Source: Patellaria atrata CBS 101060 (lineage: Eukaryota). Taken from it: 64,000 bases of DNA. Shown here one piece after another: positions 11,545-34,152 of this stretch. The position numbers were made by a program, and so were the translations under genes. Positions within the stretch are counted from its first letter, which is position 1. Each line of letters opens with the position of its first letter. The DNA lies in assembly GCA_010093705.1 (NCBI GenBank), contig MU006095.1, positions 62,001 to 126,000 of the forward strand, read 5' to 3'. The notes below the pieces were generated by a model that was not told where the DNA came from, searched no databases, and saw only the letters and a program-made list of their open reading frames with translations.

Positions 11545-13950
<2,406 letters not shown>

Positions 13951-14812: not shown

Positions 14813-15764
14813 CTATCTGATCTGTACGGCATCCAATGCTTGGGATAATGCCTCCGCCTTCTTCTTGTGCTCTTGTTCCATCAGGAATTGAGCATACCTT
14901 GAACGCTTGTTGTGGATTCCACACTCGGTTTTCGCGCGTCCCTTCCAGCGCCCTGCACGCTCGTCCTCGCCTTCTTGAATCGGCTGGGTGGAGTGCCAAT
15001 CCCCGATACTCTTGTAGCCTTGATCGAGAAGTTCGTTGTACGGCACCTGGTGTCCAGAGATGTATTCCTGGACCTGCTTGAAAGACCAGTTGGCGAGCGG
15101 ATTGACCTTAATCAAACCGGCATCATCCACTTCAATGATATCAAGATCCCCTCGTTTACCACCCTGGCTCCTTCTTCGGCCTGTGAGAACAGCCTTAACC
15201 TGCAATTCCGCGTACGCTCGTTGAGCGGGTTCAACTTTCGCCACCCAATCGTACAGCTCCTCGTCCGCTTCCCAAAGATTCTCGCCGTATTTAACGTTGA
15301 ATTCCTCAACGGTGTCCGTACCAGCCGGTTTATAGACGTGGAGTTTGACTTGAGGATACTTTTCTCTCACACGGTCAACTAAAGCCAACGTCTCGGAGAA
15401 GTGGTGTAATGTATCTAGGAAGATAAGATCCACTGGCGACTTGTTTGGGGAAATCTTGGATAAGAGGTCGACGGTGACAAGTCCAGTTAGACCGAAGGCT
15501 GTGGTCTGATATAGCGAGGGTAGGCTGGTCAAGCACCACCTTAGGATCTCTGATATCGTCGTGAGTAATACTTCATGGAACAAGGGTGAAAGGGGTATGC
15601 TCACCCTCTGGCTCGAGCTTAGACAATTGATGGTTGAGGAATTTAAGGTGTGGCTTGCTGAAGTAGACTTCGGGAAGGTTGTCGTCTGTGGAGCTAGCAC
15701 TGGCATAGCCAGACTCAACGTCTTGAGTCGATAGGGCCTCGCCCAAGTCTGACTTGCTGGACAT
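14813..15764 (-). CDS. MET16: PAPS reductase (phosphoadenylyl-sulfate reductase), 2 exons
   Basis: LYQTTAFGLTGLV, LIFLDTLHHF, KVEP, LTGRRRSQG, KVNPLANW, YNELLDQGYKSIGD and ERAGRW motifs, plus catalytic ECGIH. Confidence 0.97.
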
Positions 15765-17408
15765 GGCTGGTCAAAGCAATTATGGGGCTGAGAAGAAGGA
15801 ATTGAAGGTTGTAGAAATCTCTGAGATATGAAGGAGTAGAGTATTGGTAGGGAGTTATGAAGAGGAGAGAAAAAGCAATGGAGTATGGATAGAAGGCACA
15901 AAGAGGAATTGGAGGGGAAAATGATGTATATATGGGGCAAGAGGGGGGGAATGAGTGTGGGAGTGTTCGAAATCCAGTGTGGCCCTCGGGACTTGGGAGG
16001 GATAAGGGAGTGAAAGCGAGCACCTCATGAAGGCACCATAAACTTTTCAGAGCACGCAATTTTAGCGCGGCTCGAGAATGTGAAAAGAACGCGATATGTA
16101 ATCAAGTTCTCACCAATGGGTATAAAGAAAAATATATTTACGAAATGACCCATTGTAAATCACAATCCATAATATGTGGGGGATAGAAAAAGAAGAAAAG
16201 ACGAATTGATGCTCTTTGATTAAAAATAATCTGGTCTCTTCGCACACTGTTCGCTCCATGTTGTCGATTTCTTTGACCTTGGGTCTCGGAAATACCCAAC
16301 CACTGAAAACATCTTGAACCCGATAGGAGGTTTCTTACAAAGCAGAACGAGCGTAGAAAGACAGAGAATGAAGTGTAAGCAATCGATGACGATACAGACT
16401 ATCATAACCTTGACTTATCTTGATGCTGTATGAGTAAGATACCTTACCTCAGTACCGATTGCGTGCTCGATCGTGAACCCTACACCCTTATTACCTAGTA
16501 TGCTGTTGTAAGCTCCCTGTCAGCCGCTTGATAGATACAAGTACAATACTTTTATATCTACGGTATAAATTGTGGACTGGGTAATGTAGCGGGTGGGTGA
16601 TAAATCGAACCGAAACGATCAGAGGTCCCGAATGCCGACCCACCAGACAAAGAGGTCGGAGACTTCATCATTCCATACTGATGAGAACGTCGGCCGGGTT
16701 ATACTCGCGAAGGAATGAGCGACAACGGTCGGTCTGCTGTCTCGCGTGGGCATTGAAAGGAGAAGAATAATAGCGAGGTGCGGACATTAAATGTAGCTTT
16801 GCTGGACACCAGAAAATTCGCATCCCTTGAAAAGATATCCGTGTGGGGAAAAGTCACTTCACGTGATGACTTCCCATCCATCAGTTCAACATCTTCCTCA
16901 ACTGGCACTACTACCGGTGATTCCATTCTGATATCTACCTCCCATCACTCTGCCACATAATTAGGTATATCGTCTAGAATCAATCAAATGCCTAGAGCAA
17001 CTAATATTGCCCTCGTCTCTAATTCATGCGTCGTATATAATATCTGGTGCAAAAATGGCCCTTAAACTTCATCCATGTACAACGACCTTCCCCTACCTGA
17101 TCGCCCCAAATATTCCCCTTCCTAAAATGTGGTGGATGATAGACGAACACCTCTACAAACGCCTTTACCCGCTCTCATCCATACGTGATGCAAATGTTGT
17201 ACAAAAAACGAGAATTTGAAATGTTGCCTTGCGTATTCAATCCGTATTCCAGTCGAGGTGAATAACTCAGCTCTTATTACTGGCGGGATACAATGTCGCG
17301 GGATTAGCTAGTTTTCGCGTCCCTCGGCCGGTTATCTCGACCTGGGATGAATATGGGAATATGTCTGAAGATGAAAAGAGACTCGGAATCTCCGGTTGCT
17401 TTGAGCCA

Positions 17409-26744: not shown

Positions 26745-28383
26745 TTAGGTTTTCTTCACAAGTCCTGCTCTCTCAGCCAGATCCCTATCAACCATCACAC
26801 CTGCGATTTCAATCTTCTCCTTCGTGTTGGTCTCCGTCAACATTGTGCCTGGAAAACCATCAACACATCCTGGAACGTCTTCGACAGCTGCATCATGTTC
26901 GTCCGACTTTTGCTTTGATCCATCTCCTTGCACTTCATGGACGTTACCCTTCGTCAAACTATTATCTTCGATAACCTCTAAGGGTGCGCGCTCCTCCAGT
27001 TCTGTCGCTTCCTCCAATCGAGGCTCCGGGATGGTATCGGGAGCATGAGCTTCTACACGGTTCTCCATATACCTCTTCTCGCGCTCCGCTGTAACTTCTG
27101 GCGCAACTGCGAATTGCGGGTTGTGCCATTCGTCTCCTCCGCGTTCAACTTGTTCAAAGAAATCCAGTATATCGCCTTGAATTGTATGAAAGATGTTCTC
27201 GATATAAGTAGGTTCACCGCCGCTGAAGTAAGGACAGACCGCTCGTCCAGTGAGGTCAAGATCAGCTAAGTCCAAATCCACATCATCGAGATCAAAACGG
27301 GGCTTTTCGCCATCTTTTGCGTTATTCTTCTTTTCCGCGCGATAACCACGAACAACATTTACAACAGTGTTTGCGGGAAAGTCAGAAGTGACCCAAGCTC
27401 GAGCACGGCGGCCTAGAAAGTTTACTAGACCCGGATGGTTGAAGGCACCGACGTTTGTAAAAGGCTGAGTAAATGCCACAGCAGTTAGCTGTTGCCCAAT
27501 CTCATCGTCTTCCCCAGTAGTCAGTGAAAGCACAACTTAACAAATCATTTCTACTCACAATACTTTGAAGCAACACCAAGGAAGTTATCTGCTCCGTCAT
27601 TTAGGCCGACAACGTAGAGTTGCGCATCCTTATTCACATAATCAGGGTTATTGATGACCCTTTGGAATACGCTGCGAATATGCTCTGATGGGCTTGTATG
27701 TCCAGGGATGTTGTTGAGATTATCATGTTGCATATCGGATGGATGATATCGACTGGGCAATCGCTTGCAATGCCATGATAGATGTGTCATTGCTGCGTTG
27801 GCTTTGTAGGAGAAGACGAGCATGCCCGGGTTTAGGATAACAAAGCCGGGTGGGCCTTCTTGATCCGCGAGACGAGAATTGACATTCTTTATAAATCGGA
27901 CAAGTGTGCCTCCTTCAAGACCCCCTTCTCGCTGCAGATATCGGTGCGACGTAATTCCTAGGTCTTGGTAGCTATGGTTGATGATCACTATAACGCGTTT
28001 CTTTGACTTCAACTCATCATTTGGCGTGATCATAATGGGGAGATGAGGCTTATTGCGAGGTTTGTCAGTAGTCTCTTGAGGAAGATACAGCTCTTGTAAT
28101 CCGGCTTCTTTCAACCGCTTGTTGACTTCTGCGCGAACGCAAATATGAAAGGCTTCCCGATTCAATTCATTGGTCCGCTCGTCAGTACAAATGCGGAACA
28201 CATAGCCTTCTTTCGGATTCTTGATTTGTCGAATTTGGCTTTTAGCGTTCACAAAGTATCTCGAGTAAACCGTTAGTAGACGCCTCAGTCTTGTACCATC
28301 ACATAGTAGACATACCCAAGGCCCTCGAAAGTATCAGGGAATACGAGGTTCCTTGGAAGCCCCGATAGATGTCGACGGTACAT
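26745..28383 (-). CDS. Arb2-like (Argonaute-binding protein 2 / Arb2 domain) protein, 3 exons
   Basis: Spliced N-terminus MYRRHLSGLPRNLVFPDTFEGLG|YFVNAKSQIRQI. RVIVIINHSYQDLGI, PGFVILNPG, IPGHTSPSEHIRSVF, RARAWVTS and CPYFSGGE blocks resemble fungal Arb2-domain proteins. Confidence 0.75.
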
Positions 28384-28935
28384 CTTGCCCGCTACCTTTA
28401 GATGTATCCTGTGGTAGCGGAGATGGAAGATCAGAGGAGTACTGTGGAGAAGCTCGGCTAGAAGCAAAAGAGCGTTGCAAAGAAAATTCACGAAAAGAGT
28501 GAGGCGAGAAGAAAAGCAGCAAAGATATAGGACATGACGTCCGAACTGAGATCGTTGCGCGTTTGTTGATGTGTGTCACAATTAGGGTAGGTGCAGTCGA
28601 GGTGACCGATTTCGTACGGCAAACGCGAATGACAACTCCCTCGTGAACGTAAAGGACGGTTCTCTAAGATACTTGACTTGTAGGTTCGGAATAGGACTCT
28701 AAGAGCCCTTTCCAAGCATTCCTTATAACACATTGCCACCAAAGAGTCTTTAAAATGACCTACGTCCCAAGGAGAATGGAATATGCGCTCCTACACTAGG
28801 ATAATAATAATAATCCTTTGATTGTACATTTCTACGTGAGCTTGAATCAGAGTATAATGAACGCCACCCAATGCTTCTGTGAATTGCACGGTTGATCTTC
28901 CGCTTTTCAAGTCCCAGATGTAATCTGAAATATGA

Positions 28936-29460
28936 CTACCAACTAGCCTTCTTCACACCAGGTATATTGCCGGCTAAAGCATTGATTCTAAATTGATACT
29001 AAGTTGACCGTCCGTTAGTAAATGCTTACTTTGGGGTAGTAAAAAGACATTTGGAGGTACTGCAGGAGAAATATGTTTGGATGAATATGACATACCCGTC
29101 CCATATTGAAATCTGACATTATACCTCGTCCCTTTCCACCCATTATGCAACGGTTCTTTATCTGGGTGGATCGCGTGTAGCAGTGCATCTGCGTTAGTTG
29201 TAGTTGCGCTTGAGCACGAGCTCTCTGAGATAGGGATGTGTTTCGGATGATGTATCTTAAAGCTTGCCTACGCAAACAGTTAGTATCAATCCAATCACGT
29301 ATGCAACCCTGTAGATGGGTATGTTCTCAAATAGACATAGTCGGATAGCTTACCGTTCTGCTTCATGTTCAGCGAAGACTTTCCGTTTCGTGTGATCGCG
29401 AATATTGCGAACGTTGACAAAGCATCCTAAGTCAAGCTTCTTCGCTCGGAATTGAGCCAT
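28936..29460 (-). CDS. MRP2: Mitochondrial ribosomal protein uS14, 3 exons
   Basis: MAQFRAKKLD...IRDHTKRKVFAEHEAE|RQALRYI...IKNRCIMGGKGRG...|YQFRINALAGNIPGVKKASW. Confidence 0.95.
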
Positions 29461-29709
29461 GACGAGAAAGACGGCGATAGATTCGTTCTTCAATGAGATG
29501 CCCGATGTTGGACAACAACTGTTCTCCCCTAACGGAGGAGAGGTTCAAAAGCCATAGATGCCAAGCTAGTTCTGAAGAATAGCAATTTTTACCGAAACAA
29601 CGACAAACGACTCCAATTTCGACCTTATTTTCTACTTCTACGGCATGAGTGAACTATTACATCGTTCAAACATCTCCGTACTCGCTGATCGACGTATGCT
29701 TAAATACCG

Positions 29710-32079
29710 ATGGGTTCCATCTTTCTTCCGGGAGACATTAGACAAATCATTCAGGATTTTCCCCCAAACTCTGCTCAACAGCAGAGTGATACCCTAATTC
29801 CGAGTACCACTGGCGATTATTTACTAAAGTCGAATCAGATTAAGGATATTATTCGATCCGTCATTGACAATGGTACAATGATTGCTGATTGTTGGACTAC
29901 GACTTCATTCTAAGCTTGCAACAGGCACCGACTTAATTCCCTTACAAACTCTTTTACTCCAAATCACCGTTGGTGAGAATGATCTTAAGGATGTATTATC
30001 TCAGATGACATCTGAGGTCATTTGGAACTTCAACAATGATCACATTTACCCACGGTATGATTTTCCTCGTCATGTAGTGTGTTTTCCCCAGACGTACAAG
30101 TCGTAAGATATGCTTTACGCCACCGGGATTGTCTATCCTTTGGTCTATAGACTATATGTGAAGTGGTTCTATACTGCTAGCACACATAATGTGGTCTCAG
30201 ACGATTACAGCATCAATTGTGTTTAAGTTGAATATCATTAGTTTGCTAAAGTGCTCTACTGATCAAGGAAAATACGTCAGTACCCTGCGCCTGGAGCTAC
30301 TGAAGTTTTTCCAAAAAGCGGTCTCTGAGGCTTTGGTGCCAATCCGGCGGTTTTGTATGCAAAAGAACATATCTCCAGCCTCTCTCCAGGAGCTAGTCCA
30401 TGAAATCAATGATTCATCTATGGGTAATGACATTCTTCACGTTACCGAAAGATATGGTGGCTCTCCAAATGAAACTTATGTTTATACAACTTTGTACTGG
30501 GAAACGATTAAATGTAGGATCGTGAATGAACTCCAGAACGCTCTTGAGAGTATCGAGTGAGTCGTTCCGATGCTCTTGGACATAACCTGCTGATGCTCCA
30601 ATAGAGAAACTACCCTCACTTGCAAATTACTTCCCGGTAATCCACCATTGGAGTTCATAAAGGCCATTATTACCAGCATAGAAAATTTCTCAGAGAGATA
30701 CCGCGGACGATTGAATTTTCGAAGTAATCGTGTCGAGTTTACACCGATGGATACCTTGAAGAAGAATGCCATGCAATCCATTGAGAATATCATTGACCGC
30801 CAAAATATGCTTAGTTACGCTACCTATGACCACTGGATAAGTAACTTTCCGGAGATATACGGAAATGAAGACGAGTTGCGCAAATCTATGATGCAAAATG
30901 GTGATCGTATCATGTTCCTTGAGAACGGTGTGCTTGAAACTGCGTGGTTCGAGAATGATGTGGAGGAGAAAATAGAAGCGTTGAGAAGAAATAAATACGT
31001 TGAATTTCCAGTAAATCTCCACTAGACTAGAGCTAAATTTATCTCTGCTGATTGTTCTAATATAGGATGTAAGAGATGAGCATGTCTACTGGAATATCAA
31101 AGGTTCCGACTGCGAGTGCTTAAATGAGCTTCAAGTTGGTAGATTAAAATCGATATACGATAATGAAAGTCAACTGGTCCGCGTAAGCTACGAACTCAGC
31201 AACAACAAATTTTATCTAGTCGATCGCCGGTGGCTAGAGGAAGTTATAGACTTCGCCGGCGAACTTGCTAAAACTATAGCGCAAGCTGACTGGGATCGAG
31301 GGCAGATAAACAAGGAAGAGGTCAAATTCATTCCAGAAACCATTTTATTCGAACAACTCCGGACGAAGTATAACATCCGCGCTGTCAACCTTGTACGTTG
31401 CCTGCTCAAATCCGATGTTGGCGCTGCAGCAGCAAGTGCGTACCGTGAGCACGTGAACAAATTGACAAAAGAATCCGAGCAAGAATTTGCTTCCTTTTGG
31501 AGGGACAGTGTCTCCTTACGAGTCCAACTTTACACAACTGGAGTAACAGCTATACCTGATGATAAGATGCAAACACAGTTCCGAGATTTGCTCGAAAACC
31601 ACATCTCTAAGGAGCTTGTTACCGAGACCTTGGCGCGGGCGGAATCGAAACACTTACTTCAGTCAAGTATTGTCCGTAAAGATGTTCAAAAGCTCAGAGC
31701 CAGTCTGGATGAACATAGACCAATTATACCTGCCCTCGATAAGTTCGCCTCAAAACGGGGTGTTCCTGCAATAGCAGTGGAAGAGCTTGGAGTGAGGAAG
31801 AAGGAGATAACTCGTGAAAGGGTCGCTAAAATGAGGAACGATAAGGATCCACCACGTCTATTTCTTACATTGGTGGTGATACTGTGGGAGATTCATAATG
31901 CGGGGCTCATATATACCACCGGTAAGTTTTCACCAAAACTCTTGAAATCGCTTCAACCAGTGATAGCTCCCGAGATGCTGGAGAAACTAGAGGTCCTCAA
32001 AGCAGCTGTCAAGGCCGGATCGGTCACCGATACTCAGAAACAAGAGATGAGAACACTAGCCCAAGATGCTTGTCTTTAA
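29710..32079 (+). CDS. Multi-exon helical protein, probably a divergent UFL1 (E3 UFM1-protein ligase 1) homolog
   Basis: Five ORF segments are separated by plausible GT-AG introns. Several collinear blocks resemble UFL1 as recalled from memory, e.g. LIPSTTGDYL, YRGRL...VEFTP, IMFLENGVL, VQLYTTGV and DPPRLFLTLVVIL...LIYTTGKFSPKLLKSL. Confidence 0.62.
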
Positions 32080-32288
32080 ATAGAGCTAGAATAGATCACT
32101 TACTCCAAGACAAGCACTCCAATAAAAGGAAGGATCGATAACCTTTGACGGGATACTTTTCGACCTTATGTGCAATGAGAAAATAAACAGCCATAGCGAA
32201 AGACCCAAGATTAATGAACATAATATCGTCCAAGAGACACACCCACGCTGCATATCTCCACTGATATGACTTTGGCAGTCCCTTAAGC

Positions 32289-32876
32289 TCACATCAACTC
32301 CGCGGGCGACATGACTCCACCACCCTCCACCGTCCCCTCTCCCAACTGTCTACATAGGTTCCTGTCTTCTTCTCCCATCCCCCCCGCCTCCAGGATCTCC
32401 ATAATAACGTCAGTCTTCGCGATCACGTACTCATCAATCGTGATCCCCCTCTTAGCTAGCTCAAACTTAACCTGCGCATATTTCTCCCTCAATTCCTCCC
32501 TCTCCCTCAACACATCCCTCACGATTCTGTTATTCCGCTCACCGATACTGCCTTCCAGGATGACGTATATATTTCTCCGCGGGTACCTTAGAGGCCGGTT
32601 CCATCGGAACGCCATGCGATCGGGTACGCCAAGGGATCCTTTACGCTCGTAGCCGGCGGTCATGAAGGCGTCGACGGCCGCGTCGAAATTCTCAGACGTG
32701 ACGATCACGTTAATGTCGATGATGGGTTTGGCTGCGAGGTTGGGAACGGCGGTGCTGCCGATGTGGAGGATCTCGATGTAGGGGACGTGGGTGAGGATGA
32801 GTTCGATTTCGCTCTTGATGTGGAGGAAGAAGGTGGGCCAGAAGTTTAGATAGGGGACCACTTCGACGAGGGACAT
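32289..32876 (-). CDS. GrpB/UPF0157 family nucleotidyltransferase-like protein, intronless
   Basis: Signature HIGSTAVPNLAAKPIIDI, with VEVVPY..WP, RDVLR...Y...K..LA and Y..AKT..I..IL. Confidence 0.9.
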   Translation of the reverse strand: MSLVEVVPYLNFWPTFFLHIKSEIELILTHVPYIEILHIGSTAVPNLAAKPIIDINVIVTSENFDAAVDAFMTAGYERKGSLGVPDRMAFRWNRPLRYPRRNIYVILEGSIGERNNRIVRDVLREREELREKYAQVKFELAKRGITIDEYVIAKTDVIMEILEAGGMGEEDRNLCRQLGEGTVEGGGVMSPAELM

Positions 32877-33862
32877 GGTGGAGTTTGGAGAGGATCGGGT
32901 AGATGGGCTTGGAACAGTATCGATGTCAGGACTTTTCGAACTCCTAAGTCGTATGTGCAATGCTCTTAGTCGTAGGTTATGGAAATAGGTTGCTTAGGTT
33001 GTGGAGATATCTCGATCAGTTGGAAAGTGTAACAGGTTGTATTAGTGGCAGGGGCTTATTTTGTATCAGTATGCGCTGCTTCTGCTTACCTACTGCAGCC
33101 TGTTGTTTGCCATTATGGCAAAATTGATGAGGTCCCCGTTGTTTGTTCGGAAGGCGACGCTCGTGATACACATAGTTGGACATTGTGACCTCTCAATTTC
33201 GAGGGAGGTATATCCCCATAAAGGGGAAAGAGCAATGAGACGTTGGTCCTGAAATATGACTTGACTCTACAGTATATCACATAATGGAAGGGGTTATTTG
33301 CTCCACTCCTATCAAAACTATATATATCCTTTACGGGACTGTTATTGGAGTTGTTTACGTCATCCGCGTCATATAGATCGTCAGCCTACCCGCTGCGCAC
33401 AAGAAAGAAACCTCACCAGAAAAAAAATGCAAAAGAAGAGCCCCAAAGGCTCCCAGAAACCAGGGGAACTGATTTGCTGTGACGAATATCCACGGTGGTC
33501 TTTCCCGATTCCGTTTCCTTAAACTTATATGAGAGTCCTTAGGCAGCCCACAACCGGGGGATGAACCCTCATACCAGTTGCAACGCAGGAGGTTGATCTA
33601 AGCAAGTACCGCGTACTACGTACTAAACGGGCATGTTATTCGGAAGAAGGCCGGGTGATTTGGAAATTATAAGGTGCAAGTGCAGACGCGGAATTGGAAA
33701 GGTGCGGTTGCGTTAGAATCAAGTTTGTTTTATTTTGAGCATATTCGTGGGCACACTTTTAAGTGAAGAATGGGAGAAAAACGTGACTTTGGCCAAGAGT
33801 GAGAGTTGTGGAAGGGAGGACGGGAGAATCACTCTGATTGGACTTGGCACTCTATACTCGAA

Positions 33863-34152
33863 CTGTAAGGTATACTGCTGCTGTAAGGTATACTGCTGCT
33901 GTAAGGTATACTGCTGCTGTAAGGTATACTGCTGCTGTAAGGTATACTGCTGCTGTANNNNNNNNNNNNNNNNNNNNNNNNNNNNNNNNNNNNNNNNNNN
34001 NNNNNNNNNNNNNNNNNNNNNNNNNNNNNNNNNNNNNNNNNNNNNNNNNNNNNNNNNCTGTAAGGTATACTGCTGCTGTAAGGTATACTGCTGCTGTAAG
34101 GTATACTGCTGCTGTAAGGTATACTGCTGCTGTAAGGTATACTGCTGCTGTA
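33863..34152. repeat. 18-bp minisatellite (CTGTAAGGTATACTGCTG)n spanning a 100-N gap (33958-34057)
   Basis: Five perfect units plus a partial unit on each side of the gap. Confidence 0.97.

Follow-up and report, generated by a model that had tools for sequence, protein, structure and literature searches.

A probable distant UFL1 orthologue in Patellaria atrata represents a conserved gene family of Pezizomycotina, a lineage reported to lack UFM1

Can a fungus from a lineage in which the modifier UFM1 is reported lost retain UFL1, the scaffold of its E3 ligase, and if so, what might the scaffold do there? This question is raised by a multi-exon gene in a 64,000-nucleotide stretch of Patellaria atrata CBS 101060 (contig MU006095.1, positions 62,001 to 126,000; this whole stretch is hereafter the window, and its internal numbering is used throughout), which a first-pass annotation made from the sequence alone had described as an apparent orphan UFL1 homolog. 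Loss of UFM1 in fungi is reported by two surveys (Grau-Bové 2015, PMC4327156; Picchianti 2023, PMC10183829). The second survey adds that certain fungi keep components of the pathway and that UFL1 and DDRGK1 are often retained together, fungi included (Picchianti et al. 2023, EMBO J, PMC10183829); its text and peer-review file take such retention as a hint of UFM1-independent function, and it suggests that UFL1 predates UFM1. Because this general phenomenon is published (PMC10183829), the gene is not an orphan in the sense of being unanticipated; with UFL1 retention after UFM1 loss already in print, it is neither unique nor unexpected. The available text of that study and the accompanying file contain no mention of Ascomycota, Dothideomycetes, Zymoseptoria, Aspergillus or Neurospora, and we found no literature linking UFL1 to Ascomycota, Pezizomycotina or Dothideomycetes, with the reservation that fungi of this kind may already be listed by species in the figures and tables of Picchianti et al. 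On the sequence and model comparisons set out below, the Patellaria gene would be a genuine, distant and fast-evolving orthologue of UFL1, and we are highly confident of the homology itself.

The coding locus lies on the forward strand at 29710-32079, with an ATG at 29710, a TAA at 32077-32079 and a reading frame that remains intact over five exons encoding 662 amino acids (aa), so that the intact multi-exon gene of the first-pass annotation stands with its coordinates, start and stop exact. The junction of exons 2 and 3 was chosen by scoring 13 in-frame donor/acceptor pairs against a hidden Markov model (HMM) of 41 full-length homologs. The top-scoring five-exon model reaches 459.3 bits, compared with 389.6 bits for the public model, and the 12 alternative donor/acceptor pairs for intron 2 were rejected at 434.6-451.2 bits, i.e. 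8-25 bits below the best. All four introns of the resulting model are of the GT..AG type:

29710-29872, forward strand: exon 1 (aa 1-54 plus a phase-1 split codon; 29.0 bits, E=2e-9), with the family N-terminal motif MxxxF..DIRxxIxxFPP and the start of a beta-hairpin
29873-29924, forward strand: intron 1 (52 nt, GT..AG, phase 1)
29925-30054, forward strand: exon 2, the weakest exon (6.2 bits; 11.6 bits for the whole open reading frame piece containing it)
30055-30280, forward strand: intron 2 (226 nt, GT..AG; predicted, the best of the 13 in-frame pairs)
30281-30556, forward strand: exon 3 (39.5 bits; included in the public protein P0001)
30557-30604, forward strand: intron 3 (48 nt, GTGAGT..AG)
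30605-31010, forward strand: exon 4 (47.3 bits; included in P0001)
31011-31065, forward strand: intron 4 (55 nt, GT..AG)
31066-32079, forward strand: exon 5 (337 aa plus stop; 279 bits), the query that recovered 170 homologs

Among the 84 other open reading frame (ORF) pieces of at least 35 aa within 28000-34000, the best score against the family HMM is 0.2 bits. The model is least secure at exon 2 and at intron 2, which with 226 nt is unusually long. Exons 1 and 2 are nevertheless supported, because they show homology, conserved intron positions and a counterpart in intronless homologs. Exon 1 is matched in tblastn by the first 45-79 residues of 12 of 64 full-length homologs, and its motif sits at the start codon in 13 related loci; two metagenome loci have the whole gene in one unbroken ORF, with this motif at the N-terminus and the same C-terminal end (L003:3466-5517, 683 aa; L009:49-1974, 641 aa). 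The metagenome-collection contig L009 (2091 nt) is identical at 99-100% to genomic L010:2425-4612 except for two short gaps, of about 49 nt and about 48 nt, both of which can be placed as GT..AG after a one-base shift, the ends of the BLAST blocks being ambiguous by one base. L009 thus has the appearance of a transcript from which the introns of a family gene have been spliced. The first of its introns is in phase 1 after codon 51 and aligns with intron 1 of the window gene (phase 1, after codon 54), and the second aligns in position with intron 3.

The public protein for the locus, P0001 (595 aa, 'hypothetical protein M501DRAFT_1016106 [Patellaria atrata CBS 101060]'), starts at an ATG near 30189, inside intron 2, and leaves out exons 1 and 2. 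Its first ~30 residues are intronic (30189-30280), a private N-terminal piece to which the family HMM gives no score, and the true first ~98 residues, including a conserved N-terminal helix, are absent. Judged by these comparisons, the 5' end of the public model is incorrect.

The relationship to UFL1 becomes visible at the level of the gene family. An exhaustive HMMER search with exon 5 recovered 170 representatives at a threshold of E<=1e-3; E<=1e-30 is reached by 48, and full-length forms of the family measure 580-760 aa. We scanned 58 homologs against Pfam at E<=0.01, noting the curated cut-offs of 24 bits for UFL1_C (PF25041) and 23.2 bits for E3_UFM1_ligase (PF09743). UFL1_C was matched in 32 of them (10 exceeding the cut-off) and E3_UFM1_ligase in 18 (4 exceeding it); 14 homologs match both families, with the N-terminal domain first in all 14, and the remaining families in the scan amount to three single matches to three families. 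The uninterrupted L009 ORF likewise matches both ends (PF09743, E=1.5e-4; UFL1_C, E=2.5e-3), and the L003 ORF matches UFL1_C (E=5.9e-4). When 177,635 PDB sequences were searched with two family profiles, A1 (including the window protein) and A4 (including an intronless homolog), the top match was in both cases a DDRGK1-UFL1 fusion (8b9x; E=2e-5 and 1.2e-5, respectively) and the second was UFL1 (8c0d; E=1.4e-4 and 1.2e-4). In the ESM Atlas, the named clusters nearest to the model of P0001 are UFL1 (features 0.85), and the structure search gives a template modelling (TM) score of 0.58 to a UFL1 cluster over 481 aligned residues (32-595). For P0004 the feature score is 0.91, with 199/256 shared, and the ten best named clusters all belong to the UFL1 set.

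Several results weigh against this identification, and most of them concern the window protein on its own. P0001 matches no Pfam family even at E<=10, exon 5 alone reaches UFL1_C with only E=0.072 and 13.3 bits (under the cut-off of 24), and neither the window exons nor P0001 have a PF09743 match of their own. Single-sequence PDB searches with exon 5, P0001 and the C-terminal domain returned no matches, and word-index homology searches returned P0001 itself as the sole match. Across the family, 22 of the 58 homologs match neither UFL1 Pfam model, and almost every member of a subgroup about 600 aa long is among them; the alignments of the family profiles to PDB chains seem out of register among the winged-helix repeats; and Atlas scores below 0.9 and TM values of about 0.5 are, by the tool's own text, leads only, although here they concur with what the sequences show. 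The lack of significant Pfam and PDB matches of the window protein itself would be expected if the gene had no homology to UFL1 at all and the similarity had arisen by chance or through convergence of winged-helix repeats and helical bundles, which do cross-align. Chance would not readily place the N- and C-terminal UFL1 families in order in the same 14 homologs, several of them above the curated cut-offs, with so few matches to anything else, nor make UFL1 chains the top two PDB matches of two family profiles and UFL1 clusters the whole of the P0004 Atlas set. We therefore regard non-homology as very improbable and as already largely refuted. Similarity to UFL1 is far beyond chance at the family level, and, judging from the two Pfam matches, homology is present at both ends of the family protein.

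The UFL1 homology claimed by the first-pass annotation is thus upheld by the ordered Pfam pair, the family profiles that lead to UFL1 chains and the Atlas clusters, while the individual pieces of evidence it offered fare unevenly. Its first alignment block (LIPSTTGDYLL with human VVHTLDGKEYI) was reproduced by HMMER against 8c0d_A, at a non-significant E=1.8; blocks 2-4 fall within the PF09743-equivalent region (model residues 26-281); and block 5 (DPPRLFLTLVVIL...TGKFSPKLL) lies under the UFL1_C match, in a region that is significant in homologs and for which the window's own value is the E=0.072 given above. The Pfam comparison that had been proposed as a check yields E3_UFM1_ligase and UFL1_C at the family level, with the Patellaria protein itself below thresholds. 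The divergent short subgroup (P0120-P0150, ~590-610 aa; e.g. Salinomyces, Zasmidium) has a PF09743 match in P0128 and P0131 only, and P0132 has DLH as its sole Pfam match; short members of this kind in Mycosphaerellales-type fungi would escape Pfam-based surveys.

How far the parts of the protein correspond to those of human UFL1 can be followed from the N-terminus onwards. The human protein is described as starting with a helix (residues 1-25), followed by a partial winged helix, a further five complete ones and a helical region at the C-terminus, and as unstable without UFBP1, with L45R disrupting the complex (Peter 2022, PMC9627666). A related description gives two N-terminal helices, the second of which forms one winged helix together with two UFBP1 helices (Ishimura 2023, PMC10438457). 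In the Patellaria model, the PF09743-equivalent region was mapped via the homologs P0026, P0090, P0059 and P0097, all above the PF09743 cut-off, and the following parts were delimited:

29710-29766, forward strand: alpha1-like N-terminal helix motif (aa 1-19: F5, D9, I10, I13, F17, P18, P19)
29785-30878, forward strand: PF09743 (E3_UFM1_ligase)-equivalent winged-helix array (aa 26-281; spans introns 1-3)
29794-29829, forward strand: partial-winged-helix beta-hairpin (aa 29-40, LIPSTTGDYLLK; L29 and G35 invariant in alignment A2)
31471-32070, forward strand: C-terminal domain, helical and basic (aa 461-660), where conservation within the family is highest
31804-32046, forward strand: PF25041 (UFL1_C)-equivalent region (aa 572-652; mapped through homologs)

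Across 65 full-length homologs, conservation is highest in the last 200 residues (scores 1.6-2.7) and second highest in the first 20. The C-terminal domain has an isoelectric point (pI) of 9.25, close to the family median of 9.35, and the remainder of the protein is acidic (about pI 5). The loop of human UFL1 that reaches into the peptidyl-transferase centre (PTC) does so with a GGN apex. No conserved Gly-rich loop resembling it appears in the family consensus or in the conservation scan over model residues 282-460, a judgement drawn from the fungal family alone.

The N-terminus deserves closer consideration, as it bears on whether the fungal protein could still serve a UFM1-type conjugation pathway. 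Family members begin M-(x)-F-S-x-x-D-I/V-R-x-L-x-x-x-F-P-P, continue through a variable linker of 9-21 residues and reach the hairpin L-x-x-S-x-S-G; in alignment A2, F5 is invariant and F17 and P18 are at least 90% conserved. The hairpin segment aligns with the UFL1 sequence VVHTLDGKEYI, and the PF09743 matches of homologs start here. When a profile of the N-terminus was compared with 8c0d_A, the fungal helix fell on human alpha1, 18 human residues were skipped and the alignment resumed at the hairpin, in a non-significant match (E=1.8) that ranked fourth, behind three chance myosin light-chain rows. From this placement the helix that precedes the hairpin in human UFL1 appears to be absent from the fungal protein, and the lone fungal helix could also be the counterpart of the second human helix instead of alpha1. 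The first-pass annotation had noted a shortened E2-binding region; the region is indeed shorter, and in this same non-significant alignment the apparent loss concerns some 18 residues that in the human protein separate the first helix from the hairpin, with an alpha1-like helix kept.

In the human enzyme, UFC1 is contacted by W5, I8, L11 and F15 of UFL1, and the partial winged helix comprises residues 27-58 (Banerjee 2023, PMC10702826); binding is abolished by I8R, F15R and Q19R (Makhlouf 2024, PMC10937380). In the fungal alignment, 10 of 11 sequences have an aliphatic residue or Met in the column under human I8, 10 of 11 an aliphatic residue under L11 and 10 of 11 Phe under F15, again with the alignment non-significant at E=1.8; W5 and Q19 have no conserved counterpart in the family N-terminus alignment. 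These features can be read in favour of a complete, overlooked and possibly highly diverged UFM1-type pathway in ascomycetes, in which the N-terminal helix would recruit a UFC1-type E2 and uL24 or another target would be modified. This segment is, after all, the second most conserved of the family, its hydrophobic positions are those that make the UFC1 contact in humans, where L11R+F15R or I8R/F15R abolish binding (PMC10702826; PMC10937380), and the variable linker of 9-21 residues that follows resembles the flexible human hinge. Set against them are the reported loss of UFM1 in fungi (PMC4327156; PMC10183829, the latter including tBLASTn of genomes), the rank of the alpha1 alignment beneath three chance rows, the missing W5 and Q19 counterparts, and a scan of 86 ORF pieces from the 64-kb window, each 110 aa or longer, that returned no domain of UFM1, UBA5, UFC1, DDRGK1, CDK5RAP3 or UFSP2 and says little on the whole genome. 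On balance we consider such a pathway doubtful. It is similarly unlikely that several filamentous and lichen-forming ascomycete classes still run UFM1-type conjugation, or rely on a different E2 that this helix would dock; were this true, the view that Dikarya have lost UFMylation would be an artefact, produced by surveys of yeasts and model moulds and by sequence divergence.

Is the gene peculiar to one fungus, and is it maintained? It is not confined to a single species: the family occurs in several classes of Pezizomycotina. A taxonomy lookup of 30 representatives returned, for the named ones, the genera Mytilinidion, Phyllosticta, Botryosphaeria, Aplosporella, Dendryphion, Paraphoma, Aaosphaeria, Tothia, Venturia, Salinomyces, Zasmidium and Trichodelitschia, which are Dothideomycetes, together with Piccolia, Vezdaea, Sarea, Chaenotheca and Xylona, which belong to other groups, lichen fungi among them. 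The looked-up members are annotated as hypothetical or uncharacterised, save for one UniRef name derived from the UFL1_C domain. In a quick maximum-likelihood tree of 18 named rows, with long branches and a Patellaria row of unusual composition, 13 Dothideomycetes are split from the 5 others by one branch with a Shimodaira-Hasegawa-like approximate likelihood ratio test (SH-aLRT) value of 100, and orders cluster. This pattern agrees better with a gene handed down vertically and lost many times than with one acquired by recent transfer; an origin by horizontal transfer is not favoured, with the tree tracking taxonomy and a GC content of 0.41-0.47 like that of the flanks.

The family evolves fast, with a median terminal branch of 1.06 changes per site and 17-26% identity to P0001 (alignment A1). 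The ratio of nonsynonymous to synonymous substitution rates (dN/dS) over the last 200 codons is 0.175 at dS 0.11 for one pair of related loci, and 0.09-0.12 for three more diverged pairs in which dS is saturated. The family is under purifying selection and vertically inherited in several Pezizomycotina classes. The notion that the gene is a functionless, decaying relic or an annotation artefact could draw on the faulty 5' end of the public model. Against it stand the five exons that read through in an intact frame, dN/dS values of 0.09-0.18, conservation of the family from class to class, and the transcript-like L009, which lacks two GT..AG-placeable intervals of genomic L010. We give this notion almost no credence for the Patellaria gene, and for the family it is already refuted.

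It is then worth asking what a UFL1 orthologue would do in such a fungus. By analogy with the human protein, we lean slightly towards a UFL1 orthologue that acts as a 60S-binding scaffold, most likely independently of UFM1. Human UFL1 places its C-terminal domain (515-786) in the A, P and E tRNA sites of the 60S subunit, where it clashes with the 40S (Makhlouf 2024, PMC10937380), and binding of the fungal protein to the 60S via its C-terminal domain seems to us a little better than an even call; the basic, highly conserved nature of that domain lends the prediction indirect support. A UFM1-independent role is somewhat probable in our judgement, and is favoured because published surveys report UFM1 lost in fungi. 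From N- to C-terminus, the protein would present a short conserved amphipathic helix, a variable linker, the hairpin, an acidic winged-helix array and the basic helical C-terminal domain. The last of these may sit on the intersubunit face of the 60S, in the tRNA groove, with the winged-helix array running along the 60S surface, both as in human UFL1, and the conserved helix and hairpin may dock a partner. The UFM1-independent job would then be the binding, marking or recycling of free or ER-bound 60S subunits (ER, endoplasmic reticulum). One feature argues against a fully UFM1- and UFC1-independent role, and thus against this proposal: the alpha1-like helix, which binds UFC1 in humans, is strongly conserved.

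A further alternative is that the protein derives from UFL1 and now works away from the ribosome, perhaps as a winged-helix scaffold of PCI-like type or one that binds nucleic acids, with the fold kept and the 60S function gone. The fast evolution described above would suit such a change, as would a protein about 130 aa shorter than human UFL1, a family consensus in which no PTC-loop-like conserved loop stands out, and the presence of SelB-type winged-helix arrays among the structural neighbours. The strongest constraint in the family nonetheless falls on the basic C-terminal domain, whose human counterpart makes the 60S contact, and the family retains the N- and C-terminal ends of UFL1 in their proper order. 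We consider a purely non-ribosomal role improbable, and retain the 60S-binding scaffold as the preferred reading.

The neighbourhood of the gene was compared with 21 related metagenome loci scanned with alignment A3, 13 of which extend upstream of the gene. The upstream neighbour in the window is:

28936-29461, reverse strand: gene for the mitochondrial ribosomal protein uS14m/MRP2, of about 3 exons (Ribosomal_S14, E=2.5e-10), whose last exon ends ...PGVKKASW and a stop at 28936

Its ATG lies 248 bp from that of the UFL1-like gene and the two are divergent, and the Ribosomal_S14 match bears out the head-to-head MRP2 neighbour named in the first-pass annotation. A uS14m exon-2 query located uS14m head-to-head in 13/13 judgeable loci (L001-L003, L006, L010, L012-L017, L019, L020), representing about ten distinct genes. 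In 12 related loci a gene with an Arb2 domain comes next beyond uS14m (window block 27554-29461, reverse strand). Because this adjoining gene is also conserved, we interpret the uS14m linkage as regional microsynteny and not as a functional link, and a functional pairing with uS14m was lowered to that status. A shared intergenic element was also sought: no 8-mer occurs in more than 3 of 8 intergenic regions, equal to shuffles, and a common promoter element of uS14m and the UFL1-like gene was rejected on this count.

Residues 68-101 of the family protein P0044 (Aaosphaeria arxii, 764 aa) match the antisense of uS14m exon 1 (window 29351-29452) at 52.9% identity and E=6e-6, with a stop present in the window's frame. 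The annotated N-terminal extension of P0044 is probably a public model that wrongly runs into the neighbouring gene, and, on this match, the head-to-head arrangement is also present in a member of Pleosporales. Downstream, a GrpB-family gene (PF04229, E=4.7e-37) lies tail-to-tail at 32292-32993 on the reverse strand, with no counterpart in any of the 21 related loci. Elsewhere in the window, ORF pieces with ATP sulfurylase and adenosine 5'-phosphosulfate (APS)-kinase domains (11548-12896, reverse strand) and a 3'-phosphoadenosine 5'-phosphosulfate (PAPS) reductase (14816-16024, reverse strand) lie within ~4.5 kb of each other on the same strand and may form a small sulfate-assimilation pair.

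To our knowledge, UFL1 has been studied almost only in animals and plants, where it is difficult to tell the loss of UFM1 from that of UFL1 and of their partners. If fungi that are reported to lack UFM1 conserve a UFL1 orthologue, this would amount to a natural experiment on the scaffold's own role, for which 60S recognition, subunit anti-association and recycling at the ER are candidates, and some of the fungi that bear the family are culturable and possibly open to genetic manipulation. A practical correction also follows: the 5' end is mis-modelled here, and probably in several relatives, by truncation or extension, which hides the conserved N-terminal helix. Should UFM1, UFC1 and UBA5 prove present, the textbook loss of UFMylation in fungi would need revision for Pezizomycotina.

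Among known systems, one resemblance is to the C-terminal domains of SelB, which share tandem winged helices with the family and appear as low-ranking structural neighbours of P0001 and P0004; at TM 0.22-0.30 and with no sequence relation, the resemblance is one of fold only. UFL1- and DDRGK1-like proteins of Asgard archaea share the fold of the winged-helix array, and an archaeal cluster with DDRGK, E3_UFM1_ligase and PCI stands among the structural neighbours of P0004 as a weak match (TM 0.25); unlike these proteins, the family studied here has a tree that mirrors the taxonomy of fungi, and its members carry UFL1_C, a eukaryotic domain. Of the same kind are the organisms that keep UFL1 and DDRGK1 without UFM1 (Picchianti 2023), which the present family resembles in that a UFL1 homolog is retained in a fungal lineage. 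A further comparison is with human UFL1 in its ligase with UFBP1(DDRGK1) and CDK5RAP3 (8c0d, 8b9x), from which the fungal protein differs in several respects. At ~662 aa it is shorter than the 794 aa of the human protein, and, as far as the weak alignment allows, it seems to lack ~18 residues that comprise the hinge and second helix, part of the partial winged helix at 27-58. The human PTC loop falls within residues 388-476 (Makhlouf 2024, PMC10937380), and this 88-residue protrusion seems to have no evident counterpart in the fungal family consensus. The fungal protein also scores below Pfam thresholds and comes from a lineage reported without UFM1. What the two would share is the order of their parts (helix, hairpin, PF09743 array and PF25041 domain), hydrophobic residues at the positions aligned, non-significantly, with I8, L11 and F15, and a C-terminal domain that in the fungal family is both basic and the most constrained part of the protein.

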